A DNA stretch of 59,535 nt, counting the filler, from Nitrospinae bacterium RIFCSPLOWO2_12_FULL_45_22 (lineage in GTDB: Bacteria; 2-12-FULL-45-22): NCBI GenBank assembly GCA_001803565.1. It is 6 parts of 6 records of this genome, joined end to end, with 100 filler letters (N's around TTAATTAATTAA, not from the genome) between each part and the next. Parts side by side here need not be neighbours in the genome. Positions count along the whole stretch, not along the records: positions 29,913 to 37,823 come from MHDQ01000244.1; 5 more parts are not named here. One strand, given 5' to 3'. Below, in pieces: positions 5,573 through 43,748 of this stretch. A model generated the notes under the pieces. It was given only the letters and a program-made list of their open reading frames with translations. It was not told the DNA's origin and did no database searches. Both the position numbers and the translations under genes were made by a program. Position 1 is the first letter of the stretch. Every line of letters begins with the position of its first letter.

Positions 5573-5978
5573 CTATTTAGTATGTTCTGAGCGGATTAGG
5601 ATGGTAAACTCACCCTGGATTTTCTCCGCTTTTAATTTCTCAAGGATGGTTGAGATGGTACCCCGGTAGACCTTCTCGTAGAGCTTGGTGACTTCTTTCA
5701 CTATGACCATCTCCCGCTCTCCAAAAATAGTCTGGATTTCTGCTAATAGTTTTAAGAACCGGTGTGGGGCTTCATAAAGGATTATGGTACGCTCTTCTGA
5801 CTTTAAGCCCTCTAACCGCTTGCGCCGTTTCCCGGACTTGACAGGTAAGAAACCTTCAAAGACAAACCGGTCTGTAGGGAGTCCCGATATACTTAGGGCC
5901 GCTATCAGGGCTGTAGGCCCCGGGATAGGCGTAATACGGATATCGTCTTCTATAGCCAACTGGAGAAGATAATAAGCC
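5573..5978 (-). CDS. rsmI: 16S rRNA C1402 2'-O-methyltransferase, C-terminal part (cut by contig end)
   Basis: PIPGPTA, FEGFLP, YEAPHR, KEVTKLYE, GEF motifs. Confidence 0.9.
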
Positions 5979-6078
5979 NNNNNNNNNNNNNNNNNNNNNN
6001 NNNNNNNNNNNNNNNNNNNNNNTTAATTAATTAANNNNNNNNNNNNNNNNNNNNNNNNNNNNNNNNNNNNNNNNNNNN
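5979..6078. other. Artificial contig linker
   Basis: Ns flanking TTAATTAATTAA (stops in all frames); same at 23297-23396, 29813-29912, 37824-37923, 43492-43591. Confidence 0.97.
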
Positions 6079-7908
6079 CATATCCGCTCTTTCGATCCTA
6101 GAGCCAGGACTGCCCCGATGATAGTTGGCAGGGGTCTTTCCGCCAATTATATTACCGAGGAGAATGCCTCGCCGTTTAATATAGAAGATTCACCCCTCTA
6201 TACCTCTCTTTGTCAAGGTAATTCCCTTGTTATAGAAAATTTCGAGCAAGACCCCAGGCTCCCCCGAAGGAAGCTCTTACGGGAAGGGGTAAAATCAGCG
6301 GTCTATGTGCCAATAAAATCGCGGGAAAGAAGCCTTTTAGGATTTTTAGCCCTGGCCAGCCGGGAGTATAACTATTTTAAACCCGAGATACTGCCTTTCC
6401 TGGAGAGCATTACTAGCCAGATGGGGATAGCTACCGAGCGGACCCTATTCCAGCAAAGGCTTGCCCGCGCCAAAGAAAAATACCAGCATATCTTCACCTA
6501 TGCCAATGATTTAATTTATCTGTTTGATTTAGAAGGAAACTTCATAGAGGCTAATCTCGCGGCCCGCGAATTCACTGGTTATGGTTTAAGCGATAGGATA
6601 CATATAAGGGATGTTCTCCCTCCCGATAAGCCCGAGGAACTCATTAAGCTTGAGAGGGTCGTACAACAGTTGCTCCAGGGAGAGACTACTCAGGCCAGTT
6701 TTGAAATTGAGATAGTAAAGACAAATGGTGAGCGGGCTATCCTGGAGACCCGGGGGGTATTACTTAGAGACCATTCTGGCAAACCTATGGGTTTTCAGGG
6801 CATTTCCCGGGATATCACCAAGCGGAAGAGATTAGAAAAAGAGCTAAGAGATAATAAAGAATTCCTGGACAATATTATCCAAAATATTGCGGACCCCATC
6901 ATAATGACCGACATCCATGGCATAGTTACTTTCTATCACCCTGGGCTTATGACAGAGACAAGGTATAGCCCGGCAGAGATGCTAGGGCAGCCTCCTTGGA
7001 AGTTCTACCGCGAAGGCGAGAAAGAGGCCAAAAAGATAATGGCTATCCTTAAAAAAGAAGGTAGGTTGATGAACTATGAGCTGGAACTAGTAGAAAAAGG
7101 AGGAAAGGTCGTCCCTTACTTGATCTCAGCTATTCTTTTGCGGGATGACAGGGGAGAGATAGTGGGAACCTTAGGGATAGCGAAGGATTTAACCGAGAAG
7201 AAGGCCTTAGAGAGGCAGGTATTCCAGAGTGAAAAACTGGCCTCTATCGGTATGCTGGCGGGCGGTGCGGCCCATGAGATATTTAACCCCATGCAGGTCA
7301 TCCTGGGCATTAGTCAACTGCTGATGCAAAAGCAGAAATGGGATGATAGCGTGATAGAAAAGTTGAAGAAGATTGAGGATCAAGTCAAGCGGGTGACGAA
7401 TATTATAAATGGGTTGCGCCAGTTTTCTCACTCTTCTCTCCAGGAAAAGACCATGTTAGACCTAAATGCTACTCTAAAAGAAGCCCTATCTTTAATAGAG
7501 TACGATTTTCCCAAGGAAGGGATAGATCTAATTGTCAAACTAGATCCCCAGCCTTTAATACTCTATGGCGATAGTGCAGAGCTTATCCAATTATTTGTTA
7601 ATATCCTTATCAATGCCAGAGATGCTATGCCCAAAGGGGGAAGGGGTACAATTACTACTGCCCCATATATAAACCAGGAGAGGAATTGGGTAAGAATTGT
7701 TATTTCTGATACCGGGTGTGGCATCCCTCCGGAACTGCTGCCCAAAATCTTTGACCCCTTCTTTACCACTAAAGCTGCCGGTAAAGGCACCGGTTTAGGG
7801 CTGACGGTCTGCCATGGCATCGTAAAGAGGCATGATGGGCTAATCTCCGTAGAGAGCCAGCCCAGGCAAGGGACTACCTTTACTATTGACCTGCCCCTTG
7901 CTACCTGA
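6079..7908 (+). CDS. GAF-PAS-PAS sensor histidine kinase, NtrB-like (5' truncated)
   Basis: H-box AHEIFNP, N-box NARDA, DTGCG, FFTTK, GTGLGL; two PAS/PAC segments. Confidence 0.9.
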   Translation, partial: HIRSFDPRARTAPMIVGRGLSANYITEENASPFNIEDSPLYTSLCQGNSLVIENFEQDPRLPRRKLLREGVKSAVYVPIKSRERSLLGFLALASREYNYFKPEILPFLESITSQMGIATERTLFQQRLARAKEKYQHIFTYANDLIYLFDLEGNFIEANLAAREFTGYGLSDRIHIRDVLPPDKPEELIKLERVVQQLLQGETTQASFEIEIVKTNGERAILETRGVLLRDHSGKPMGFQGISRDITKRKRLEKELRDNKEFLDNIIQNIADPIIMTDIHGIVTFYHPGLMTETRYSPAEMLGQPPWKFYREGEKEAKKIMAILKKEGRLMNYELELVEKGGKVVPYLISAILLRDDRGEIVGTLGIAKDLTEKKALERQVFQSEKLASIGMLAGGAAHEIFNPMQVILGISQLLMQKQKWDDSVIEKLKKIEDQVKRVTNIINGLRQFSHSSLQEKTMLDLNATLKEALSLIEYDFPKEGIDLIVKLDPQPLILYGDSAELIQLFVNILINARDAMPKGGRGTITTAPYINQERNWVRIVISDTGCGIPPELLPKIFDPFFTTKAAGKGTGLGLTVCHGIVKRHDGLISVESQPRQGTTFTIDLPLAT

Positions 7909-12282: not shown

Positions 12283-12523
12283 TAGCATAGGAATTTCCTT
12301 TTTAATAACCCGGTTTTTCAGTATGCTTGTGGTGAGCGAAGCGAATCCATCAATTCCGAAAGGGCAAGGCTTGTCCTGAGTGAAGCGAAAGAAAGGGAGA
12401 AGCAAAGCAGGTAAGATAAACCACAAAGCCACAAAGAACACTAAGCAATTTAGTTAAGAGTAAGGAGTAAATAGTTACTCCTTACTGCTAACGGCTTACT
12501 GCTCACTTTTATCTGGAGGTAAG

Positions 12524-12871
12524 ATGGGGAAGAAGAGTCTTGTTTTAGTTTTCCTGGCGGTTATTCTGCTCTATCCAATATCCATAACAGCACCCCAAGA
12601 ACCTCCCGACAAACTCTTCCTGGAAAAATGTGCCCCTTGTCATGGCCCTCAGGGTAAAGGCGATGGCCCAGCGGCTACTGCTTTAAACCCTAAACCGCGA
12701 GATTTTACCTCCGGCCAATGGAAGTTTGGTGGTAGCAAGGAGCAAATAATAAAGACTATTACTGGGGGGGTTCCGGGGACAGCTATGCCAGCCTGGAAAG
12801 CTTCTTTATCGCCCGAACAGATAGGGCAATTAGCTGGCTATATCCTTACTCTCTCCCAAAAAGCCAACTAG
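12524..12871 (+). CDS. Monoheme c-type cytochrome
   Basis: Signal peptide, CAPCH heme motif, GDGP, GTAMP distal Met. Confidence 0.9.
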   Translation: MGKKSLVLVFLAVILLYPISITAPQEPPDKLFLEKCAPCHGPQGKGDGPAATALNPKPRDFTSGQWKFGGSKEQIIKTITGGVPGTAMPAWKASLSPEQIGQLAGYILTLSQKAN

Positions 12872-17181: not shown

Positions 17182-18246
17182 TTATGCGAGATATTTCTCC
17201 TGGGCCTCGGGGTTGAGCCAACATTTTGGGTCTGGACCAGCTAGATCACCGGTATAATGCAGGGCCGCCGCACGACAACCCACGCAAATATCATTATTCT
17301 CACACTGGGCGCACTTACCTTTTACCGAGATATCTCGCATGGAGATGGTCTCTTTATGCTGCTGGTAGATATCATAGAAGCGCTGCTGATAAACGTTACC
17401 TGAAGCCATCTCCCGGGGCATCTGGCCACAGCGCATGACCAAACCATCTACCGTCAGATAGACATTAGTGCGGCACTGAATAGTAGTACATTCCGTAGAG
17501 CCCATCCGAGCCCAGTTGGGGCTATTAAATTTCTTGGCCCGGTACTCAAAAGCCCGTTTTACATCAGAGAGGCTGGGCTCTAACGCACGCTTGATGCTAC
17601 CACTGCCCATGGGCTTAAATACCGACATCTCTACGAATCTTGCCCCCATCTCATCAACATACCAGTCAATAGTTTCCTCAATAGCCTCCGCGGCTGGGCC
17701 GGTCAGGGTGATACAGGGCAGGATGCGCTCCCGGAGAAACCCGGCCTCAAGGAGGTTTTTATATCCTTGTATTCGAGCGGAGAGTTCTTTGGGATTAGAA
17801 TGGAGCCGGGCAAAGACTTCGGGGTTGATACTATCTATATGGATACCAAAGACATTGAGATACCTCTTCTGATAAGCTTCTACCACCTTCTTGCTCATAG
17901 ACCTGGTTAGGGGTAAACCACCAGAAAATGCCCCACAGCCTATACCAACATGAGAGGCATAGGCCAGGATCTCAAAAAAATCTGGGTGCAACAAGGACTC
18001 CCCACCATCCCAATAAATCTGACAAAAACCCAGAGTAGCCAGGTCATCCAATACCTCAAATACCTTTTCCTTTGGCATATATTGCGGGTTGGGGTTAGCA
18101 TCTGAATTGCTAAAGCAAAACTTACAAGTATGGGGGCATTTAGTAGTCAATTCCCAATCAATATAATAAGGCCGTTTCTCTTTCCAGGCCCGTACTTTCC
18201 TCGGACTGATATATTTATCAAAGATATCTTCCCGATATGTCGCCAT
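17182..18246 (-). CDS. Radical SAM protein with SPASM domain
   Basis: CPHTCKFC (CxxxCxxC), GGES, C-terminal CAQC..ICVGCRA..DPKCW; ATG 18246 with GGAGGGAG. Confidence 0.9.
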   Translation of the reverse strand: MATYREDIFDKYISPRKVRAWKEKRPYYIDWELTTKCPHTCKFCFSNSDANPNPQYMPKEKVFEVLDDLATLGFCQIYWDGGESLLHPDFFEILAYASHVGIGCGAFSGGLPLTRSMSKKVVEAYQKRYLNVFGIHIDSINPEVFARLHSNPKELSARIQGYKNLLEAGFLRERILPCITLTGPAAEAIEETIDWYVDEMGARFVEMSVFKPMGSGSIKRALEPSLSDVKRAFEYRAKKFNSPNWARMGSTECTTIQCRTNVYLTVDGLVMRCGQMPREMASGNVYQQRFYDIYQQHKETISMRDISVKGKCAQCENNDICVGCRAAALHYTGDLAGPDPKCWLNPEAQEKYLA

Positions 18247-23296: not shown

Positions 23297-23398
23297 NNNN
23301 NNNNNNNNNNNNNNNNNNNNNNNNNNNNNNNNNNNNNNNNTTAATTAATTAANNNNNNNNNNNNNNNNNNNNNNNNNNNNNNNNNNNNNNNNNNNNTC

Positions 23399-29812: not shown

Positions 29813-29912
29813 NNNNNNNNNNNNNNNNNNNNNNNNNNNNNNNNNNNNNNNNNNNNTTAATTAATTAANNNNNNNNNNNNNNNNNNNNNNNNNNNNNNNN
29901 NNNNNNNNNNNN

Positions 29913-30592
29913 ATAACAATAAGGGTGTATCACTGGCATTACTGGGAAAAAGTGACGAAGCGATTTCTGCATATAAAGAAGCCTTACAAAATAAAGAAGA
30001 CTTTAAGGAGGTATATAATAATCTCGGCGCCGTCTATGTCGACAAAGGGATGATTGACGATGCGATTGCCGCATACAAAAAGGCAATTGAAATCAATCCG
30101 AATTTTGGAGAGGCTTATAATAACCTCGGAGTTGCCTTCACAAAAAAAAAGAATTACGATGAAGCCATTTCCGTATTTAAAAAGGCGCTGTCTTTAAGTA
30201 AAAATCATGCAGGCGCTCATTTTAATCTGGGAGTAGTTTACTCAGAAAAAGGAATGACATCGGAAGCAATAGATGAATACAATGAAGCTTTGCGGCTGAC
30301 CCCAAACGATCTTTCATCGCTGTACAATCGAGGCGTCCTTTATATACAAAGTGGCAGGTTAAATGATGCCACAGCGGATATGAAAAAAATAATCGAGATT
30401 AATCCAAAGGTGTCTGCAGCGTATCACAAGCTGGGAACAGTCTATCAAAAGCAGGGTCAGATCAATGAGGCAATTGCCGAATATAAACGAGCATTAGAGA
30501 TAACACCTGATCTTAAAGAGGTGTTAACCAGTCTTGAGGATGCTTATCGGTTAAAAGAAAAAAAACAAAAAATCAAGGAAGCAGGGGAATAA
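29913..30592 (+). CDS. TPR-repeat protein (5' truncated)
   Basis: Repeated AYNNLG..EAI..YKKA.EINP 34-aa units; frame is open back to the contig start. Confidence 0.88.
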
Positions 30593-30717
30593 GAAAAAGA
30601 TAAGTTGTATATTCAAGGAATTTCAAAGTTATGTAATTGTAGAGCGAGATTTATTTCGCCTGAAGCGACTAAAAAGGTAATCAACAGAAATGGGCGACTT
30701 GAAAGTCGCATTACACT

Positions 30718-32217
30718 ATGCTGCGCTATGGTATGAATAACAAAATCAAACTATTTTTTTTGTGCCTGGGTTGCCTCTTCATTCTTAGTTTTAACGATAA
30801 AGCCTCTTGCGAAGAATACAAGCTGTTTACCGGTGTTGTTCATCTCGATTCCACCATTAGCGGCGGGAAATTACCTCCTGAGGAGATGGCCAGGATTGCC
30901 CATGATGCCGGGGTAGAAATTGCCATCTTTACCGACCATGATACCATGCGATGGGAATATGGCATACCACCGCTCAGAAAATTTATCAGAAAGGTTGTAG
31001 AAAAAGGCTCCATTCATAATTACGGTGAGGCAAACTATATCAATACGATCTCCGGATTAAATCAAAAGTATCCTGATATGCTGATTATGCATGGGGCGGA
31101 GGCAATTCCATTTTATTGGTGGAAAGGAAGCTACTTTACTAAGGATTTGGAGATGATGGATGGGCACAAGCACATTCTGGTAATGGGATTGAATAACGTC
31201 TCAGATTATGAAAACCTCCCTTCGATTGGGAAGGGTTATTCCAGGGAGTTTGCATTTGATACCTTGGTCAGCCTCTGGCCTCTCTGTTTTTTTGTCTTTG
31301 GCTGGCTTCTGTTTTCGTCGGCAAGGGAAGGTGGTATTGCTACGTTGCTAAAAATTGCAAGTACGATTTGCCTCCTGCTGGGGATAATTTTTACGCTAAA
31401 CAATTTTCCCTTCGCATCGCCCCGGTATGATCAATATCATGGCGATCGTGGAATAGCGCCGTATCAGACGGTCATTGACTACGTCAACTCGCGAGGTGGC
31501 GTGACTTTTTGGGCACATCCCGAAGTAGAAGATGTGAATAAAGAAGCAGGTGGGGTTAAACTTATTACGAAGCCTTACCATGAAGACCTGTTTAAAGTGC
31601 GGAATTATACAGGTTTCTCAGTATTTGCAGAAGGGATTAAGTTCATGGCTCCACCGGGTGGTGTATGGGATCAAATCCTCGCTCAATACTGCAAAGGGGA
31701 ACGTGAACGACCCGTCTGGGCTATCGGGGAAGTGGACTTTGGGGATGAAGACACATTTTCTATCAAGGACTCACAAACCATATTTCTGTTAAAAGAAAAG
31801 AACGAAAAAGCCGTAATCGAGGCGCTTAAGGCTGGCCGTGTCTATGCCCTTCATTTATACACCGAAAAGACCCCGACCTTAATCCTGGATACATTTATAA
31901 TCGAAGATACTACCCAACCCGCTAAGGCTTACATGGGAGAGGAATTAGAAACGGATAAAAATCCACGGCTAAAGATTCACGTGTCCCTTCCAGAAATGGC
32001 GAAGGACGTAAAATATAGAGTAGACATTATTAGAAACGGAGAGGTGATACATCGGTTTGAATCTACCGGAAATACGGAGATGACCTATGAAGACAAATAC
32101 GTCAAACCAGGCGAAAAGATTTATTACCGACTGGATATCGACGGACCTTCGCGCATCCTGTCCAATCCAATATTCGTGAAATTTGGTTCACCTTCCGGGA
32201 ACACGAAGGGAGAATGA
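30718..32217 (+). CDS. Membrane-anchored PHP-like metallohydrolase
   Basis: Signal-like N-terminus, VHLDS, FTDHD, AHP motifs, two internal TM helices. Confidence 0.7.
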   Translation: MLRYGMNNKIKLFFLCLGCLFILSFNDKASCEEYKLFTGVVHLDSTISGGKLPPEEMARIAHDAGVEIAIFTDHDTMRWEYGIPPLRKFIRKVVEKGSIHNYGEANYINTISGLNQKYPDMLIMHGAEAIPFYWWKGSYFTKDLEMMDGHKHILVMGLNNVSDYENLPSIGKGYSREFAFDTLVSLWPLCFFVFGWLLFSSAREGGIATLLKIASTICLLLGIIFTLNNFPFASPRYDQYHGDRGIAPYQTVIDYVNSRGGVTFWAHPEVEDVNKEAGGVKLITKPYHEDLFKVRNYTGFSVFAEGIKFMAPPGGVWDQILAQYCKGERERPVWAIGEVDFGDEDTFSIKDSQTIFLLKEKNEKAVIEALKAGRVYALHLYTEKTPTLILDTFIIEDTTQPAKAYMGEELETDKNPRLKIHVSLPEMAKDVKYRVDIIRNGEVIHRFESTGNTEMTYEDKYVKPGEKIYYRLDIDGPSRILSNPIFVKFGSPSGNTKGE

Positions 32218-33410
32218 GCAATTATAAATCTGCAGAAAAGATCAGGGTATTGCACGTAATTACACGCCTTGAAAGGGGTGGCGCACCGGCCGTCCTTCTT
32301 GAAGTGTTGCGACGCTGTGATACTTCACAGTTTGAACATCATATCGCGACAGGATTGTCGCAAGTGCCTGACGATGATATGATTTCATTCGCAAAAGATA
32401 CAGGTTTCAGAGTAGTGGTTATTCCTTCCCTTATTCGAGATATCCACCCGTTTTTAGATATATATGCACTTTCAAAACTTTATTTTTTGATTCTCCGGGG
32501 CAGATATGATATTGTTCACTGTCATACATCGAAAGGTGGTTTTCTTGGCCGTTTGGCGGCACGGCTGGCAAAGGTAAGGGTCATTATTTATTCCCCCCAC
32601 GGTGATATCTTTGAAGGGTACTTTGGGAAGATAAAAACCTGTTTATTTACAGGGCTCGAAAGATTTTCTGCCAGGTTCACAGACAAAATTATTACGTTGA
32701 CAAAAAGCGGCATCGAGCCTTACATAAGGGCTGGAATTGGCCAAAAACCTCAGTTTGATTATATTTACAACGGAATTGACGTTGAAAGCTTTGAGAAAAG
32801 AAAGGTCGATAGGATACAGAAACGACAGGAAATCGGGGTTGAAAACGATTGTTTTCTGGTTGTAACGGCAGGCAGACTCGTGCCCGTAAAAGGACATACC
32901 TATTTGATTACGGCCTTTGCTCAGGTAATTACAGAGATACCAAATATACGGTTGGTTTTCCTCGGCGATGGGGAACTGAGAGGAGAACTTTCAGAACAGG
33001 TAAAAACCCTTGGATTGGAAAAACATGTATTATTTCTGGGAATGCGCAGCGATGTCCCGGAAATCATCTCATGCAGCGACCTGTTCGTCCTGCCCTCCGT
33101 CAACGAGGGATTTGGTGTCGTATTGTTAGAGGCGATGGTCATGAAATGTCCCATCGTTGCGACGAATGTGGGTGGTGTGCCTGAGGTCGTTCTGGATGGA
33201 GAAACAGGAATACTCGTACCATTAAAAGACCCTGTCCAATTAGCCGGAGGCATTATTCAACTCTTAAAAGATACCTCTCTTGCTAAACAGATGGCCGAAT
33301 GTGGATACCAACGATTGAAGGCGTGTTTTGATATCAGAGAAACGGTATCAAAAACAGAACAGTTGTATAAGGAATTGTTAGAAAGGAAATTGTGTGGAGA
33401 TGTCAATTAA
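32214..33410 (+). CDS. GT4 glycosyltransferase
   Basis: VLHVITRL..GGA, HCHTSK, GRLVPVKGH, EGFGVVLLEA. Confidence 0.9.
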   Translation: MSNYKSAEKIRVLHVITRLERGGAPAVLLEVLRRCDTSQFEHHIATGLSQVPDDDMISFAKDTGFRVVVIPSLIRDIHPFLDIYALSKLYFLILRGRYDIVHCHTSKGGFLGRLAARLAKVRVIIYSPHGDIFEGYFGKIKTCLFTGLERFSARFTDKIITLTKSGIEPYIRAGIGQKPQFDYIYNGIDVESFEKRKVDRIQKRQEIGVENDCFLVVTAGRLVPVKGHTYLITAFAQVITEIPNIRLVFLGDGELRGELSEQVKTLGLEKHVLFLGMRSDVPEIISCSDLFVLPSVNEGFGVVLLEAMVMKCPIVATNVGGVPEVVLDGETGILVPLKDPVQLAGGIIQLLKDTSLAKQMAECGYQRLKACFDIRETVSKTEQLYKELLERKLCGDVN

Positions 33411-34597
33411 AGAAAACTTAGAGCAAGTAAAACAGAACATTGCTAATGCAGCCGTGAAAGCAGGTAAAAGGCCGGAAGACATTGTCCTGGTTATGGCAAC
33501 CAAGACGGTGGATACTGAACGAATACGCGAAGCCATTAAGGTAGGCGGCCGTATCATCGGAGAAAACAAGATTCAGGAGGCGCTGAAAAAATATGAGGCG
33601 CTAAAGGACGAGGGAGCGGAATGGCATTTCATCGGACACCTGCAGACGAACAAGGTCAAGGACGTGTTGAAATTCGCAGACATGATTCACTCTGTGGATC
33701 GTCTATCTCTGGTAGAAAAGTTAGACCAGCGGCTCCAGCAGGAGGGACGCTCCATGGATATTCTGGTACAGGTCAACACCTCTCATGAGGAAAGCAAGTA
33801 TGGTGTCTCGCCCGAAGAGGCGATTCCTTTGGTCAGGCAGACAGCCAAATACGACACATTAAAGATATATGGGCTTATGACCATTGGCCTCTTTACGAAG
33901 GACGAAGTAAAGATTCGAAAGTGTTTTAAGGTGCTAAAAGAAATAAACGACAACATTATCAAAGAGGGCATCGATAGGGTACAGATGAAATATCTCTCTA
34001 TGGGCATGTCGGGAGATTACCAGATAGCGATTGAGGAAGGTGCAAACATGGTGCGCATCGGTACGGCGATCTTTGGCGCCCGTAATACCCCCGACGCCTA
34101 TTACTGGCCTTCAGAGAAAACCGATGCGGACCGGGCTAAGCCAGCAGATAAGAAGGTTGAAAACAGCACTGGAATAGCAGCGGGTAGAAATGTAAACATT
34201 GGTAATGTTAGCGGTCAGGTTGCAATAGGGAAAAATATTATACAAACCCAATCTATAGGGCAAGTCGATCTTGAAGAGCTCAGGAAGAGCCTTCTTGACT
34301 TCCAAAAGAGGATAGCTAATCTCGGTCTTTCCTCTGAAGACCAAAGTATTATTAACGGTGATATAAACGCTGCCATCAAAGAAGCTAATAAGGAAAAGCC
34401 TGTTCTGTTAAAAATTAAAGAGAGGTTTGAAAGCAGCGTTAATACTATTAAAGAAGCGGGCAAGACAATAAAGGATATTTCAGAACTTTATGAAACAGCA
34501 ACAAAAATAGCAAAATTAGTTGGCATAGGTCTNNNNNNNNNNNNNNNNNNNNNNNNNNGCAAAATTAGTTGGCATAGGTCTCTCATTCCTGTTCTAA
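33400..34597 (+). CDS. yggS: YggS/PLPBP fused to an amyloid-like motif plus ~95-aa helical domain
   Basis: ATKT, GENKIQE, HFIGHLQTNK, LSMGMSGDY, VRIGTAIFG. The 34533-34558 gap has duplicated flanks (gcaaaattagttggcataggtct); collapsing them gives the end ...KIAKLVGIGLSFLF* at 34597. Confidence 0.82.
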
Positions 34598-34612
34598 GTA
34601 AAGGATATTAAA

Positions 34613-37255
34613 ATGACACCGGGTGAGTTTTCCGTTCCTAAAATACAGGTAAGCGGGGATTTTAAACTTGGAGATGTCTCTGGACAGGCGGCTATTGGTG
34701 AAAATATCACACAAACCGTTTATAAAGATTGTACTTTTATTCTTCCGGATGGTTCAAACGTACACGGCAAATCATGGCTCTATACTCAAGGTATCAGACC
34801 CACTACCGATCCAACTAATATATTCGGCAGAGAGCGGGAACTGGACAAAATTGACGAGTTTTTCAAAGATATCCCAGCTCTGGTTATCACAGGTTACAGA
34901 GGTACTGGAAAATCTACTCTAGCAAGCATGTATTTAGATAGATTGGGGAAAAGGGGCACATTTGTTGGTATGTATTGGCGGAAAGTAGATGAAACCATTG
35001 ATATTAGCGACGTGGTGGGCGGTTTTTTGACAGTTGTAGGCAAGCCAATTAAAGACCTTGGGCAATATAAAATTGGAGATCAGCTTAATTTACTCTTTCG
35101 AGAGCTAAATGCAGCACCTTACTTTTTAGTACTCGACAATTTCGAGATCGTCCTTGACTCCCAGACGAATGTATCCCAGAAGCCTGGTTTTTCAGAATTG
35201 ATCGAGAAGGCAAACGAGAGTGCTGGTAGAAGTCGAGTTCTATTTACAAGCTGGGAATACCCTGCAAGTGAACGCGGAATCAGGCCGAAATGCTACCCTA
35301 TTGGTGGCATTGATGAGGCCGCAGCCATCCAGCTTTTAAGGAAAAGTGGTTTAACTGAGCATGATAATGAGCTTAAAAAAGTTATAGAGCTTTCTGGCGG
35401 TCACCCTCTCGCCCTTATTCTTTTGGTGCAGATTGTCAAAGAAGGGGCGGAAACGCTTTCGAGCATCCTGGATGATAATACTTTGTGGCTTGGAGAAAAA
35501 GGCGAAGTGGCAGAAAGAATCCTGGATAAGGTTTATACAGAAAGGTTAAACACGGAAGAATGTAGGCTGCTCCAGTATCTATCATTGCTTAGAGAACCAT
35601 TACCAACAAGGGCAATAGCCACCATTGCGAATGATCCTGGCTGGACCGATATTTTTATTAAAAAGATAGCATCAAACCTTATCAGGAAATCTTTGTTGCA
35701 AAAAACAGGAGAAAATTACTGGGAAGAGTCTTTAATACAAAACTATATGTACATCAAGATGTTTGACAAAGCGAAACGTCATGGATTTGCTTATCAATAC
35801 TATCTTTCCCTTCCAATGCCCAAAAAACGTACAAACAAGGAAGATTTGCGCTTCTTAATAGAAGCATATTATCATGCATGTATGGCCAAAGAATATGATA
35901 AAGCAGCAAGTATTATCCTCGACTATAATCTGCACGAAAATTTGGAGAGATTTGGAGAGTATAGGACACTTGTTGAAATTTACCATAAAATTCTGCCAAA
36001 AGATCCGTTAAGAGAGACTCCTCTAATAAGCAACATACAAACCCATTGTTCTATCCTTGGAAACCTCGGTGTTGCATACAGCACTTTAAGCCAAGAAAGG
36101 ATTGCTATTGAGTACTATGAAAAAGCTTTAGAGATTTCTCAAAAAGTTGGTGACAAACACAATGAGAGTGCGTCGTTTGGGAATCTTGGCCGTGCACATA
36201 TACTTTTAGGCAGGCCAAAGGATGGTATTATTTATTATGAAAAAGCACTTGAGATTGCTCGGCAAATAGGGGATAGAAAAGCAGAAGGTATAAGGATTGG
36301 GAATATAGGTAATGCTTATAGTGATTTAGGAGAAAAAAGAACAGCTATCGAGTATTATGAAAAGGCCATGAAGATTGCTCAAGAAATTGGAGAAATAAGG
36401 AATCAAGGTGTGTGGCTGGGAAATATTGGCAATGCTTACAGTATTTTAGGAGAACAAAGAAAGGCTATCGAGTGTTATGGAAAAGCGAAAGAAATTGCTT
36501 TACAAATAGGAGATAAACAAAGTGAATGTGCATGGCTCGGAGGTCTTGGTAATGCTTATAATAATTTAGGAGAGACGGAAGCGGCTATAGAGTATTTCAA
36601 AAAGGCTTTAGAGATTGCACAGAAAATTGGTGACAAACGTAACGAGGGTGGGTTGTCTGGAAATATTGGTTGTGCTTGCTACGCACTACGTGATATAAAA
36701 AATGCTATTACATATTTTGAAAATGCGTTAAATATTGCACAAGAAATTGTGGATAAACTAGGAGAATTAACGTGGCTCGGAAACATTGGCAATGTCTATC
36801 GCACTATGGGTAAAAGACTAGAAGCTGTTAAGTATTACGAGAGAGCCGTTAAAATTGCTAAAGAAATTGGAGATAGACGTGGTGAAGGTACATGGCTTGG
36901 GGGTCTTGGTAATGCTTATCGTGATCTAGGAGAGATGGGAAAGACTTTCGAGTACTATGCAAAAGCCTTGAAAATTGCCCATGAAATTGGTGACAGAGGA
37001 AATGAAGGCGTATGGTTTAATAATCTAGGCAATATCTTCAGGGATAAAAAAAAATACAAGGAGGCGCTGTCGTTTTACCTACTTGCTAAAGATATATTCA
37101 CTCAGATAGAAGACCCAGATATTGAAACAACTGAATCAAGCCTCAAAAATCTTAAAGAAGAACTCGGAGAAAAAGAGTTTGAACAACTTGAAGCTGAAGT
37201 GGGACCAAAAAAAGAAGAGATTATAAAAAAAATGTTGAAAGAAATTGATGAATAA
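34613..37255 (+). CDS. NLR-like STAND (NB-ARC) ATPase with C-terminal 40-aa TPR repeats and a short N-terminal amyloid-like motif
   Basis: Walker A GYRGTGKS, Walker B LVLDNFE, GHPLAL; about nine LGNIG.AY..LG...AIEYYEKAL.IA..IGD repeats. Confidence 0.9.
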   Translation: MTPGEFSVPKIQVSGDFKLGDVSGQAAIGENITQTVYKDCTFILPDGSNVHGKSWLYTQGIRPTTDPTNIFGRERELDKIDEFFKDIPALVITGYRGTGKSTLASMYLDRLGKRGTFVGMYWRKVDETIDISDVVGGFLTVVGKPIKDLGQYKIGDQLNLLFRELNAAPYFLVLDNFEIVLDSQTNVSQKPGFSELIEKANESAGRSRVLFTSWEYPASERGIRPKCYPIGGIDEAAAIQLLRKSGLTEHDNELKKVIELSGGHPLALILLVQIVKEGAETLSSILDDNTLWLGEKGEVAERILDKVYTERLNTEECRLLQYLSLLREPLPTRAIATIANDPGWTDIFIKKIASNLIRKSLLQKTGENYWEESLIQNYMYIKMFDKAKRHGFAYQYYLSLPMPKKRTNKEDLRFLIEAYYHACMAKEYDKAASIILDYNLHENLERFGEYRTLVEIYHKILPKDPLRETPLISNIQTHCSILGNLGVAYSTLSQERIAIEYYEKALEISQKVGDKHNESASFGNLGRAHILLGRPKDGIIYYEKALEIARQIGDRKAEGIRIGNIGNAYSDLGEKRTAIEYYEKAMKIAQEIGEIRNQGVWLGNIGNAYSILGEQRKAIECYGKAKEIALQIGDKQSECAWLGGLGNAYNNLGETEAAIEYFKKALEIAQKIGDKRNEGGLSGNIGCACYALRDIKNAITYFENALNIAQEIVDKLGELTWLGNIGNVYRTMGKRLEAVKYYERAVKIAKEIGDRRGEGTWLGGLGNAYRDLGEMGKTFEYYAKALKIAHEIGDRGNEGVWFNNLGNIFRDKKKYKEALSFYLLAKDIFTQIEDPDIETTESSLKNLKEELGEKEFEQLEAEVGPKKEEIIKKMLKEIDE

Positions 37256-37358
37256 CCAACCGTCTCGTAAAAAGAACATAAGAAATGATGCTGGCATCAC
37301 AGCTAATGGTAATGTCTCTTTTGGAGATATTTCAGGGTAGCTTGCTATTGCACAGCAC
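37248..37358 (+). pseudogene. Disrupted remnant carrying a third copy of the shared motif
   Basis: ATG overlaps the NLR stop; MNNQPSRKKNIRNDAGITANGNVSFGDISG*LAIAQ, with TAG (37338-37340) where the other two copies have CAG (Q). Confidence 0.7.
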
Positions 37359-37434
37359 AAGTATGGTGGGTTAAGTAAGGTGACTCCATCATTAATTTCG
37401 TTAATGATACTCCGCTTTACTCAATTTTATATGT

Positions 37435-37823
37435 TTATGCCCTTAGCAGTAAGGCATGTGCGCAAAGACCCGCGCCAAAGGCGACCATCACGCACCAATC
37501 GCCAGTCTTCATGCCGCCATTATTCAAAATCTCCTGCAAAACAAAATACACCGTCGGCGATGACATATTCCCGTATTTAGCCAACACATTACGAGTAGCC
37601 TTAATGTGCGACTCAGGAAGACGCAATTCATCCCTTATTGCATTAATCACCTTTTCGCCTCCAGGGTGAAATGCCCAGTGGCTTATATCCCTGGTTCCCA
37701 ATCCCGCAGATTCCAGAAGGTCATTAACCACGGTGGCAACCGCCTTGCTTGCCACCGCAGGTAATGATATTGATAGTTGGTTGTGAAGCTGTCCATTTTT
37801 ATATACATACCTTATATCTTCAC
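37435..37823 (-). CDS. Type III polyketide synthase, C-terminal part (cut by contig end)
   Basis: HPGG, YGNMSS, AFGAGL. Confidence 0.88.
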
Positions 37824-37923
37824 NNNNNNNNNNNNNNNNNNNNNNNNNNNNNNNNNNNNNNNNNNNNTTAATTAATTAANNNNNNNNNNNNNNNNNNNNN
37901 NNNNNNNNNNNNNNNNNNNNNNN

Positions 37924-38486
37924 CAACGCCGTTCGAAAGATGCATACATCAAATGGCTCACCGATATGAAATTAGGGGCTGCCGATTGGATGAAAGATGT
38001 CCTGGAAGCTAATTATGCCTGTGCACGAGATCCCAAGGCTGCGTGGATACCTGTAGACGCACCAGCCTGTGAGATAAAGGGAACAATGTCACCAGGTGTT
38101 AATGAGCAACAAGTTCCGACTATTTCAGTAGCAGAAGTCAAACGCCGTATCAAGGGTAATCTGGTAGACGGTACAGTAATACTGGACGTTAGAGAACCCG
38201 CGGAACTGAAGGGCGAGTTGGGCGTTATTCCCGGTGTCGTACACATACCTGTCGGACAAATATCGCAGCGGTTATCCGAATTAGAAAAATACAGAGAGAA
38301 GGAATTTATTACCGTATGCCGCAGCGGAGGCCGCGCGCATACTGCAGCGGCTATTTTACTGCAGGCAGGGTTCAGAAAGGTCTTCAATATGGCCGGCGGN
38401 NNNNNNNNNNNNNGCAGGCAGGGTTCAGAAAGGTCTTCAATATGGCCGGCGGCATGAAAGCCTTTCAGGAAGCAGAAAAATCGTAG
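37924..38486 (+). CDS. C-terminal part of an MBL-fold persulfide dioxygenase-rhodanese fusion
   Basis: ETHE1-like tail (..LEANYAC), LDVRE, CRSGGR; the 38400-38413 gap has duplicated flanks, and collapsing gives ...NMAGGMKAFQEAEKS*. Confidence 0.72.
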
Positions 38487-38566: not shown

Positions 38567-39430
38567 TTGAGAAGGAAAAAATTAACAAAAAAAATTATTA
38601 AAAAAGGCAAATATTTTTTTAGGAGATATACCTGTCATTTGAGGATATTGCCTGATTTTCTTATAGTCGGAGCCCAAAAATGTGGAACAAGCTCTCTTTA
38701 CAGGAACTTGGTCAGACATCCGTCAATTGTTCCCGCATTCGTTAAAGAAGTGCATTTTTTTGATAATAGCCGTAATTACTTTCAAAAAGGAGTCGGGTGG
38801 TACAAGGCTCATTTCCCTTCTTTACTGTATAAATACTATATTACGCATATCTGTAAAAATGATTTTATCACCGGAGAGGCAAGTCCATTTTACCTATTTC
38901 ATCCGCATGCGCTTAGGAGAATATCAGAACTGCTACCGGAAGTTAAGATAATCGTCATTTTAAGAAACCCTGTTGACAGGGCTTATTCTCACTACCACCA
39001 TGAAGTCGAAAAGGGGCGTGAAACACTATCTTTCGAAGACGCCGTAAGAATGGAAGAAGAGAGGCTCCGCGGGGAATTTGATAAACTTATGGCAGACGAG
39101 AAGTACACAAGCCTGAATTACAGTTGTTATGCATACCTTTTGCGGGGAATATATGTTGACCAGCTAAAACGTGTGTACAGCTACTTTGAAAAGAGCCAGG
39201 TCCTTATTTTGAAGAGTGAGGATTTTTTTAAAGATTCACAATCCACTATTGATAAAGTATTTCAATTCTTAGGCTTGCCTGGATGGCAGATGGAGCATTT
39301 CAAAAAGGCCAATGTCGGTTCTTATCAAAAAATGAATAGCGCCACAAGAAATCGGTTGCTCAATTATTTTGAGCCTCATAACCACAAGCTCTATGAATAT
39401 CTGGGCATTAATTTTGGCTGGGATAAATAG
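38567..39430 (+). CDS. PAPS-dependent sulfotransferase (heparan-sulfate sulfotransferase-like)
   Basis: 5'-PSB GAQKCGTSSL, KEVHFF, GEASP, 3'-PB RNPVDRAYSHY. Confidence 0.9.
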   Translation: MRRKKLTKKIIKKGKYFFRRYTCHLRILPDFLIVGAQKCGTSSLYRNLVRHPSIVPAFVKEVHFFDNSRNYFQKGVGWYKAHFPSLLYKYYITHICKNDFITGEASPFYLFHPHALRRISELLPEVKIIVILRNPVDRAYSHYHHEVEKGRETLSFEDAVRMEEERLRGEFDKLMADEKYTSLNYSCYAYLLRGIYVDQLKRVYSYFEKSQVLILKSEDFFKDSQSTIDKVFQFLGLPGWQMEHFKKANVGSYQKMNSATRNRLLNYFEPHNHKLYEYLGINFGWDK

Positions 39431-39510: not shown

Positions 39511-40380
39511 ATGACAGGTGGAAAAACCAAAAAAAATTTTATTAAAAAAAGCAGATTTCTTTACAGACTATCAACCTGCCATTTGAGGATATTGCCTGAT
39601 TTTCTCATAGTCGGAGCTCAAAAATGTGGGACAACTTCTCTTTACAGGAATTTGGTCAAACATCCATCAATTGTCCCCGCATTCGTTAAAGAGGTACATT
39701 ATTTTAATAATAGCCGTAATTACTTTCAAAAAGGCTTAGGCTGGTATAAGGCGCACTTCCCTACTTTACTGTATAAATATTATCGCAAACATATAGGTAA
39801 AAATGATTTTCTCACCGGCGAGGCAAGTCCATTTTACATGTTTCATCCGCATGCACCCAGAAGAATTTCAGAACTGCTACCGGAAGTTAAATTAATCGTC
39901 ATTTTAAGAAACCCTGTTGACAGGGCTTATTCTCATTATTACCATGAAGTCGAAAGGGGACGTGAACGTGAAACAGTATCTTTCGAAGACGCTATAAGAA
40001 TGGAAGAAGAGAGGCTTTGCGGGGAATTTGATAAACTAATGGCAGACGAGAAGTACACAAGCTGGCATTACAATCATAATTCATACCTTTTGCGGGGAAT
40101 ATATGTTGACCAACTAAAGCGTGTGTACAGCTACTTTGACAAGAGCCAGATACTTATTTTGAAGAGTGAGGATTTTTTTAAAGACTCACAATCCACCATT
40201 GATAAAGTATTGCAATTCTTATGCTTGCCTGAGTGGCAACTGAAGGATTTCACAAAGGACAACGTAGGTTCTTATCAAAAAATGGATCCCGCGACAAGAA
40301 GCCGATTGCTCGATTATTTTAAACCTCACAATCAAAGACTGTATGATTACCTGGGTATCAACTTTGGATGGGAAAAATAA
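39511..40380 (+). CDS. PAPS-dependent sulfotransferase, tandem paralog
   Basis: Same motifs; long identical DNA stretches shared with 38567-39430. Confidence 0.9.
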   Translation: MTGGKTKKNFIKKSRFLYRLSTCHLRILPDFLIVGAQKCGTTSLYRNLVKHPSIVPAFVKEVHYFNNSRNYFQKGLGWYKAHFPTLLYKYYRKHIGKNDFLTGEASPFYMFHPHAPRRISELLPEVKLIVILRNPVDRAYSHYYHEVERGRERETVSFEDAIRMEEERLCGEFDKLMADEKYTSWHYNHNSYLLRGIYVDQLKRVYSYFDKSQILILKSEDFFKDSQSTIDKVLQFLCLPEWQLKDFTKDNVGSYQKMDPATRSRLLDYFKPHNQRLYDYLGINFGWEK

Positions 40381-43491: not shown

Positions 43492-43748
43492 NNNNNNNNN
43501 NNNNNNNNNNNNNNNNNNNNNNNNNNNNNNNNNNNTTAATTAATTAANNNNNNNNNNNNNNNNNNNNNNNNNNNNNNNNNNNNNNNNNNNNAGAGCAAGC
43601 TCTGCCATTACAACCAAAAAATAATTTGTAGTGATCGAGCCTTCGGGCTGAGGCCCTCTAGGCCGAAAGCTTGCTCGCCTCTATCCAGGTCCTTTGCCAT
43701 TCTTTAGTGACTTTGTGCCTTGGTGGCTGAACGATTATCGAAAATGAA

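Follow-up and report, generated by a model that had tools for sequence, protein, structure and literature searches.

A motif shared by an NB-ARC/TPR receptor and a small helical protein marks a candidate two-component NLR-type module with inverted effector topology

How a sensor without an effector domain of its own might hand on a signal is the question raised by a locus in the genome of an anammox-type bacterium, Nitrospinae bacterium RIFCSPLOWO2_12_FULL_45_22 (GenBank assembly GCA_001803565.1). The DNA analysed, called the window throughout, is a stretch of 59,535 nt joined from six contigs, and the locus lies on a 7.9-kb contig at positions 29913-37823. There, a gene in which yggS runs in frame into a helical domain is followed by a gene for a STAND (signal transduction ATPases with numerous domains) NTPase and by a very small open reading frame (ORF). 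The first-pass annotation of this DNA had described one motif in three adjacent genes and had proposed an amyloid-signalling module built around a NOD-like receptor (NLR; NOD, nucleotide-binding oligomerisation domain). The module proved real and conserved, and is best read as a sensor coupled to a helical executioner with inverted effector topology. That the motif couples these receptors and effectors is very probable. The broader claim, a two-component NLR-type immune or cell-death module working by the mechanism set out below, is held with moderate confidence.

A profile hidden Markov model (HMM) of the motif was built from 35 members of the small helical-protein family and run against the six-frame ORFs of the window. 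At an independent E-value (i-E) below 0.01, exactly three matches were returned, all within 3.2 kb: the effector-side and receptor-side copies listed in Table 1, and a third at 37287-37337 (i-E 9e-7). Longer motif patterns matched only these copies in the window, and the positions and description first given for the three copies were thereby confirmed. A five-residue core pattern matched the three copies and one extra site, 18230-18244 on the minus strand, which lies in a frame interrupted by stops. Over 1195 motif residues, glycine (23.3%), isoleucine (13.8%), glutamine (10.1%), valine (9.5%) and asparagine (6.9%) were frequent, and lysine (1.8%), leucine (0.9%) and proline (0.5%) were scarce. 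In length and composition the motif agrees with bacterial amyloid signalling sequences (BASS), described in the available sections of Dyrka et al. (2020, bioRxiv 10.1101/2020.01.06.895854) as about 25 residues long, rich in Q, N, G, V and I and poor in K, P and L.

A Pfam scan of ten motif-containing pieces at E <= 10 gave no family for eight and unrelated weak matches for two, within the limit that HMMER filters discard most matches above E ~0.1. The library scanned, which we take to include RHIM (RIP homotypic interaction motif) and HET-s prion-domain models, gave no RHIM match on these pieces, and by eye the two intact copies in the window do not contain what we take to be the RHIM core tetrad. 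The likeness to RHIM that had been suggested for the motif was thus not upheld. Full-text literature searches with four short motif strings returned nothing relevant.

To assess gene pairing, 23 effector-family genes were inspected: 20 in loci L001-L019, one in the window and two more. For 21 of them, an ORF in the same direction that carries the motif close to its N-terminus was present within ~260 bp, in Archaea and Bacteria. Twenty pairs were measured; the spacer was no longer than 24 bp in 16, the effector gene preceded the receptor gene in 19, and the motif began at receptor residue 8-18 in 18. NB-ARC was recognised in 23 of the 32 partner ORFs that carry the motif, AAA_16 in 21 and TPR_12 in 19. 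Pairing of the BASS type is therefore found in the window and across the family, with the motif at receptor N-termini and in adjacent genes, the check proposed at the outset. The exceptions were L006, where the partner lies 2.5 kb away, and L008, where the NTPase is fused straight to motif and bundle. The Methanoperedens locus L014 has the order effector, receptor, receptor, effector, receptor, and one Methanoperedens genome has four effector copies.

The receptor of the window, a protein of 880 residues, matches Pfam NB-ARC over residues 85-277 (25.6 bits; cut-off 23.5) and TPR_12, a tetratricopeptide repeat family, in seven stretches (E 1.2e-68). AAA_16 scored 32.4 bits, just below its cut-off of 32.6, and Pfam recognised no enzymatic domain. 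An NB-ARC-type P-loop NTPase followed by a repeat sensor places the protein among STAND/NLR-like receptors, and the initial description of an effector-less NB-ARC/TPR receptor next to a small protein with the same N/Q/G/V/I-rich motif stands. With the first 430 residues as query, 120 homologues were recovered, among them proteins of the cultured Methanosarcina barkeri and M. vacuolata that bear the motif. The motif is present in 80 of these NOD homologues and within the first 30 residues in 64. In 11 it lies at about residue 122-129, behind an unnamed domain of ~115 residues, and in one it follows DUF4062. Among the remainder are entries truncated at the N-terminus, motifs that have degenerated, and proteins in which Trypsin_2 (four) or Metallophos stands at the motif's position. 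This comparison shows the motif in the N-terminal slot where homologous NTPases bear effector domains.

The ~115-residue domain is conserved, contains a hydrophobic stretch, has no Pfam match and occurs in the layout domain-motif-NOD-TPR (P0258, P0260, P0262, P0263, P0268, P0269, P0275, P0282, P0284 and P0301; loci L010 and L013). It might be an executioner resembling Bell, the effector domain of BASS systems, fused in the classical order.

Two classes of receptor N-terminus can be told apart. The intact receptor of the window belongs to class A, in which the motif is conserved and is followed by a conserved linker of ~35 residues. Among 44 homologues, the TPR region was less conserved than the NOD in 41. 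Between the window and the locus of Candidatus Subterrananammoxibius californiae (L001), amino acid identity was 0.54 in the TPR region and 0.83 in the NOD, with proportions of nonsynonymous differences (pN) of 0.28 and 0.077, respectively.

The 131 residues that follow YggS were used as query for the small helical protein and recovered 91 proteins from Planctomycetota, Methanosarcinales and anaerobic methanotrophic archaea (ANME), Euryarchaeota and metagenomes. Nearly all are 130-145 residues long and none has a Pfam domain. An alignment of 35 members has a mean column identity of 69%. The layout is the same throughout, free-standing homologues included: a methionine, ~12-15 variable residues, the motif, the helical domain and a conserved hydrophobic C-terminal tail. 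In each of the 35 sequences aligned, the motif comes before the helical part. When 1.84 billion representatives were searched with the profile, 154 clusters matched at E <= 0.001 and 48 at 1e-10; among the full-domain matches listed, nearly all extend to the protein C-terminus, and some carry N-terminal extensions, which in the family range from ~95 to 480 residues. Pfam and NCBIfam have no family for the protein. A weak match to DUF4404 (E 0.004-0.009) and a TCAD2 lead from the ESM-Atlas (score 0.90) were not confirmed in the Pfam scan.

An AlphaFold2 model was made for a homologue 92% identical to the effector of the window, with a 35-sequence alignment. Residues 1-41 had a predicted local distance difference test (pLDDT) score below 50, whereas residues 46-140 formed a four-helix bundle (helices 46-66, 70-87, 94-110 and 119-139) at pLDDT ~87-95, with a predicted template modelling score of 0.64. 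The disorder of the first segment beside the confident bundle therefore places the motif outside the globular domain, and folding of this segment as part of such a domain, the possibility raised at the outset, was not seen in the model. Alignment, model and profile search agree with the order first noted here, in which a helical domain that ends in a hydrophobic tail follows the motif, opposite to the usual arrangement.

The motif also heads other proteins. Ten motif-only profile matches were scanned with Pfam and comprised five STAND fragments, one TPR protein, one TIR_2 protein and three proteins without a Pfam family. The TIR_2 protein (P0240, 270 residues) has the motif at its N-terminus, ahead of the TIR domain. 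P0155 and P0163 (241 and 313 residues) have an N-terminal motif and no Pfam family. All three may be additional effector types that use this signalling currency. A second family, of ~145 residues, shares the N-terminal motif, differs in its helical part and has a C-terminal region that is hydrophobic and rich in glycine; it is found in Chloroflexota, Gemmatimonadota, Dadabacteria, Rhodothermales, Acidimicrobiales and Pirellulaceae. At 11 of its 16 loci, a large ORF that runs in the same direction and bears a related motif at its N-terminus (seven identified by HMM, four by eye) ends directly upstream; of the five remaining loci, four have the small gene no more than 1.4 kb from the contig end. 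In an hhalign comparison, the motif and the first helix were all that linked the two families of small proteins (probability 97.8%, E 1.3e-12, 42 columns). In the second-family receptors (L021-L028, L032, L037 and L038, upstream large ORFs), a stretch just past the shared core resembles, by eye, what we take to be the RHIM core tetrad. Three second-family receptor N-termini matched no Pfam family.

Amyloid-templated NLR signalling is established in fungi and animals and, since recently, in the defence of E. coli against phages. By analogy, the NB-ARC/TPR protein would be the sensor, and its hypervariable TPR region would bind a ligand. The ligand-bound NTPase would oligomerise and gather the N-terminal motifs, which would adopt a beta-rich, probably amyloid-like, fold. 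This fold would template or recruit the identical motif N-terminal to the four-helix bundle, and polymerisation of the bundle protein would free its hydrophobic C-terminal helix to attack the membrane and kill or arrest the cell. Composition, length, disorder of the monomer and genomic logic all fit amyloid templating, which is for this reason the best-supported inference on the behaviour of the motif; amyloid or prion behaviour is attributed to it here from composition, disorder and analogy. Membrane targeting, the trigger and an immune function are likewise proposed parts of the scheme.

Several points weigh against this mechanism. They run from the motif through the bundle to the state and surroundings of the local copy, and the explanations that they favour are taken up with them. 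The motif is kept in all-in-one fusions, namely NTPase-motif-bundle (L008), TPR-motif-bundle (L019) and HEAT-repeat-motif-bundle proteins (P0097-P0099), where it would be dispensable if it served purely to relay a signal from receptor to effector. Among 18 pairs (L001, a near-duplicate of the window, left out), the motif showed no covariation specific to partners: identity was 0.493 within pairs and 0.487 for non-partners, and 6821 of 20000 permutations reached the observed value. Instead of templating, the motif could thus act as a homotypic adaptor, a finite beta-structured oligomer within a resistosome-like assembly that recruits the effector stoichiometrically; it would be a strand-exchange docking tag, like Death-fold or EAD (effector-associated domain) adaptors, without prion-like propagation. 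Its conservation across the family in the absence of covariation, its persistence in the fusions, its place at the head of unrelated domains (bundle, TIR, TPR and NTPase) and the conserved linker behind it in class-A receptors are all as expected of an adaptor. Against this, the composition and length of the motif match the published amyloid-motif bias, and AlphaFold2 with the 35-sequence alignment gives it no fold in the monomer. On balance a plain adaptor seems unlikely.

For the bundle itself, Foldseek returned nothing at E <= 0.001 and no specific structural relative, the bundle profile found nothing below E 0.1 among PDB sequences, and fold searches yielded only generic four-helix bundles. 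Because the bundle has no specific structural relative, pore formation is proposed for it by analogy only, and its hydrophobic tail is just ~10-14 residues long. The closest look-alikes by VIA-align are four-helix bacteriocin immunity proteins (PedB, Z 11.3; EntA-im, 8.9; PisI, 8.2; LciA, 7.1), and even the best of these scores lies under the tool's stated noise level for helical bundles. Taken at face value, they would make the small protein a regulator, whether an inhibitor, an immunity-like partner or a guardee, with the death activity elsewhere or with no cell-death system at all; a receptor without a recognisable effector domain would suit this too. The bundle nonetheless occupies the C-terminal, effector-like end of fusions to HEAT, TPR and NTPase sensors, the same N-terminal motif heads TIR, an established immune effector domain, and enzymes stand at the motif's position in homologous receptors. 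A regulatory role is, on this evidence, very improbable.

The state of the local copy was approached through its junction with yggS. The YggS core matches Ala_racemase_N over residues 8-230 and TIGR00044 at 202.2 bits (cut-off 106.25; residues 2-228 on profile positions 3-229 of 229). In 85 of 92 genomes of the same order, YggS orthologues have open frames of ~247-262 residues and their alignment spans query residues 1 to 243-255; a tail of 15-20 residues beyond the core is therefore native. In six close relatives, YggS is 91-96% identical and the effector family is absent; their blastn similarity ends at 34136-34145, and metagenome contigs have loose ends at 34130-34139. No ATG, GTG or TTG stands in frame on the way from the YggS core to the motif, and for this reason the effector can apparently be produced here only as a 382-residue C-terminal fusion to YggS. 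What had been described as an extension of YggS does contain the motif and the helical domain; it is not an original part of that protein but a captured, normally free-standing gene that was fused in frame secondarily and has lost its own start. The low pN of the 26-codon linker (0.016, with a proportion of synonymous differences, pS, of 0.71) was withdrawn as proof that the fusion is translated, as the linker is mostly native YggS tail.

The same fusion occurs in Candidatus Subterrananammoxibius californiae (L001) and in the independently called proteins P0094 and P0095, and contigs of metagenome runs X1, X3 and X5 bridge the junction. Runs with the junction come from groundwater, soil and aquifer metagenomes of 11 studies. 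Summed contig depth in those metagenomes was ~100-500 over yggS and ~5-7 over the module, consistent with the module being a minority variant there. A run of 26 N at 34533-34558 interrupts the bundle-coding part and has an identical 23 nt on both flanks. It is an assembly artefact, an unmerged overlap: L001 reads through it, contigs of three public runs skip 49 nt, and P0094 equals the fusion product of the window with the gap collapsed. The C-terminal tail first read for the protein, which required this collapse, was correct. In an aquifer metatranscriptome (run X19), a contig over 34169-34519 is ~95% identical and has a different upstream sequence, and so represents a free-standing effector allele; it was not counted as evidence of expression, since DNA carry-over into the RNA library is possible.

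The small ORF that overlaps the stop of the NLR gene, as reported at first, is of another kind. Read through its TAG, it aligns from its first methionine to seven class-B receptor N-termini. The TAG (37338-37340) replaces an invariant Gln codon of the motif core, similarity to class-B receptors stops a few codons past it, and the stub is identical in L001. By these alignments the third copy is what remains of a second receptor gene cut short by a nonsense codon, and not a third partner; three copies of the motif in adjacent positions were rightly recognised, and three working genes were not found.

With one receptor gene a relic and the effector without its own start, the local copy may be partly decayed. 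Carried further, the module would be a decaying passenger in which the fusion to yggS and the lost start have inactivated or deregulated the effector, and the shared motif would reflect ancestry. The lack of a start, the nonsense codon in the stub and the low depth of the module relative to yggS are what such a passenger would leave. Yet two lineages with yggS genes that differ at pS 0.82 (saturated) each have the two long ORFs intact. Since the alleles of the window and L001 split, pN/pS has been 0.021/0.101 in the effector and 0.077/0.360 in the NOD, about 0.2 in each. The same fused ORF recurs in independent assemblies (P0094, P0095 and L001), and family members tolerate long N-terminal extensions. 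We therefore regard decay as quite improbable and retain the two-component module as the preferred reading.

No known defence system was recognised around the module in the window, and collections of phages, plasmids and viral contigs contained no relatives of it. In the anammox-containing order, 3 of 92 genomes carry the family, as do, at E <= 1e-10, 17 of the 201 genomes sampled from the Methanosarcinales order. GC content is 0.37-0.39 in the module (0.30-0.32 at third codon positions, GC3), 0.47-0.51 upstream and 0.47 in yggS (GC3 0.57), so the block is indeed richer in AT than yggS. Being sporadic, compositionally foreign and absent from the closest relatives, the module is to all appearances horizontally acquired, and both earlier suggestions, AT-richness and acquisition, hold. 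Between the window and L001, pS was 0.82 in yggS (saturated), 0.10 in the effector and 0.04 in the receptor tail and relic. Nucleotide identity was 0.91-0.98 at the module ends and 0.58-0.69 in the TPR region, against 0.73-0.75 in yggS. This pattern suggests recent exchange of the module ends together with cassette-like replacement of the sensor part. The shared insertion at yggS may be either ancestral, with later losses, or moved between lineages. At locus L002, which comes from a different genome of this order, the module stands free, with no yggS nearby, and lies amid three PIN-domain genes (5873-6265, 7274-7705 and 12348-12761) in an accessory region rich in toxin-antitoxin genes.

In the HET-S/NWD2 system of Podospora and in the RHIM necrosome, the motif at the N-terminus of an NLR templates the motif of a membrane-targeting helical executioner (summarised in PMC13506858, as far as excerpted). 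The mechanism proposed for the module has this signalling logic; those systems belong to other kingdoms and have the order effector then motif.

Among prokaryotic systems, the module resembles the Bell/BASS-NLR pairs that filamentous bacteria and Methanosarcinales encode (Dyrka et al. 2020, bioRxiv 10.1101/2020.01.06.895854; comparison with the available sections). Common to both are adjacent, mostly collinear genes with very short spacers; an effector-less NB-ARC/TPR receptor with a G/N/Q/V/I-rich, K/P/L-poor N-terminal motif of ~25-30 residues; the same motif on a small helical protein of ~140 residues; all-in-one relatives; and hosts that form aggregates. Bell, however, has an N-terminal hydrophobic helix and a C-terminal motif, whereas here the motif is N-terminal and the hydrophobic segment C-terminal, so that the effector-side motif does not follow a Bell domain as in BASS effectors. 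Fused forms here also retain the motif, unlike those of Bell/BASS-NLR, and the hosts include Planctomycetota of the anammox order, which those sections do not mention. Table S2 of that paper has two Methanosarcinales pairs that belong to none of BASS1-10; they may be relevant to how novel the motif is, the BASS families having been compared by description only.

Bab/Agp, an antiphage system of E. coli with a shared amyloid motif (Ibarlosa et al. 2024, bioRxiv 10.1101/2024.11.07.622273), likewise sets a small helical death protein and a TPR-containing sensor side by side and, from the part of that preprint considered, is an experimentally supported precedent for the mechanism proposed here; by its description, the Bab motif is C-terminal and the hydrophobic helix N-terminal, unlike in the module. 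A 2025 deep-learning paper on amyloid signalling motifs and a 2026 review, in the portions available, also place effector-side motifs at the C-terminus and receptor-side motifs at the N-terminus. The portions available of Kaur et al. 2020, Kaur et al. 2021 and a 2026 preprint surveying STAND proteins do not describe the family. The effector polarity seen here is thus the reverse of that in every system described in the literature examined, within those portions.

One candidate defence protein of PADLOC, PDC-M14B, aligns with motif and bundle over profile positions ~151-263 of 261-275 (E 1e-7 for P0003, 5.7e-11 for P0173). Just its C-terminal ~110 positions match, and its N-terminal ~150 have no counterpart here. 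PDC-M14 models did not match the receptor of the window, and no paper naming PDC-M14 was found in a full-text search.

Features of the contig are collected in Table 1. Each joint between the six contigs consists of a 12-nt all-frame stop linker with 44 N on either side (5979-6078, 23297-23396, 29813-29912, 37824-37923 and 43492-43591), and synteny cannot be read across them. On the next contig, two tandem paralogous sulfotransferase genes were found at 38567-39430 and 39511-40380 (Pfam Sulfotransfer_1, E ~1e-24 each), and a second N run within a contig, 14 N at 38400-38413, lies by eye within a rhodanese-like ORF.

Table 1. Coordinates of features on the module-bearing contig, counted along the window.
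Feature	Coordinates	Strand	Basis or remark
499-residue ORF upstream of the glycosyltransferase gene	30718-32217		no Pfam family at E <= 1e-4
Glycosyltransferase gene		+	Pfam Glycos_transf_1
ORF of the yggS and helical-protein fusion	33394-34611	+	
YggS core, pyridoxal phosphate-binding TIM barrel, complete	33394..34092	+	Pfam Ala_racemase_N, TIGR00044
Native C-terminal tail of YggS in this clade	34093..34140	+	orthologue alignments, blastn, contig loose ends
Junction, leftover of the N-terminal region that the effector once had, read in frame with yggS	34141..34164	+	
Effector-side motif copy, ~33 residues	34165..34263	+	motif HMM i-E 6e-16
Predicted four-helix-bundle domain and conserved hydrophobic C-terminal tail	34264..34611	+	helical-domain HMM E 2.4e-46
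Assembly artefact, duplicated 23 nt and 26 N	34510-34558		inside bundle-coding part
STAND NTPase receptor, NB-ARC and TPR, 880 residues	34613..37255	+	Pfam
Receptor-side motif copy, NLR residues 11-35	34643..34717	+	motif HMM i-E 9e-9
TPR region, putative sensor, hypervariable between alleles	35903..37120	+	
31-codon ORF, start overlapping the stop of the 880-residue ORF	37245-37340	+	
Relic 5' end of a second, class-B receptor gene	37248..37352	+	start overlaps NLR stop
Chalcone-synthase-type C-terminal fragment, convergent, runs past contig end	3' end of contig 29913-37823		

A wider and more tentative reading, possible but doubtful at present, is that the module belongs to an undescribed family of amyloid motifs acting from the N-terminal side of effectors. 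Multiple STAND receptors and multiple effectors would use the motif as a common currency, in hosts that include ANME/Methanosarcinales archaea, anammox Planctomycetota, Omnitrophota and Chloroflexota; the effectors would be a four-helix-bundle membrane killer, the second helical family, a TIR protein and domains without a name, and the bundle would be an inverted analogue of Bell/HeLo. If this is true, the bundle fires a C-terminal and not an N-terminal hydrophobic helix, and, as the motif is kept in all-in-one fusions, polymerisation of the effector itself, beyond the relay, would be the function of the amyloid. Release of a membrane-active helix by fold conversion at the other end of the bundle would then be testable in mirror image, and the capture of an effector by YggS offers an unusual natural experiment on the N-terminal cargo that the motif tolerates. 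Should a family of this opposite polarity be widespread, genome mining of effector C-termini alone would miss whole families. Methane-cycling archaea and anammox bacteria live in dense aggregates, and their immune systems are poorly known. Systems of this kind would reach both the archaea of methane-cycling consortia and the anammox bacteria.

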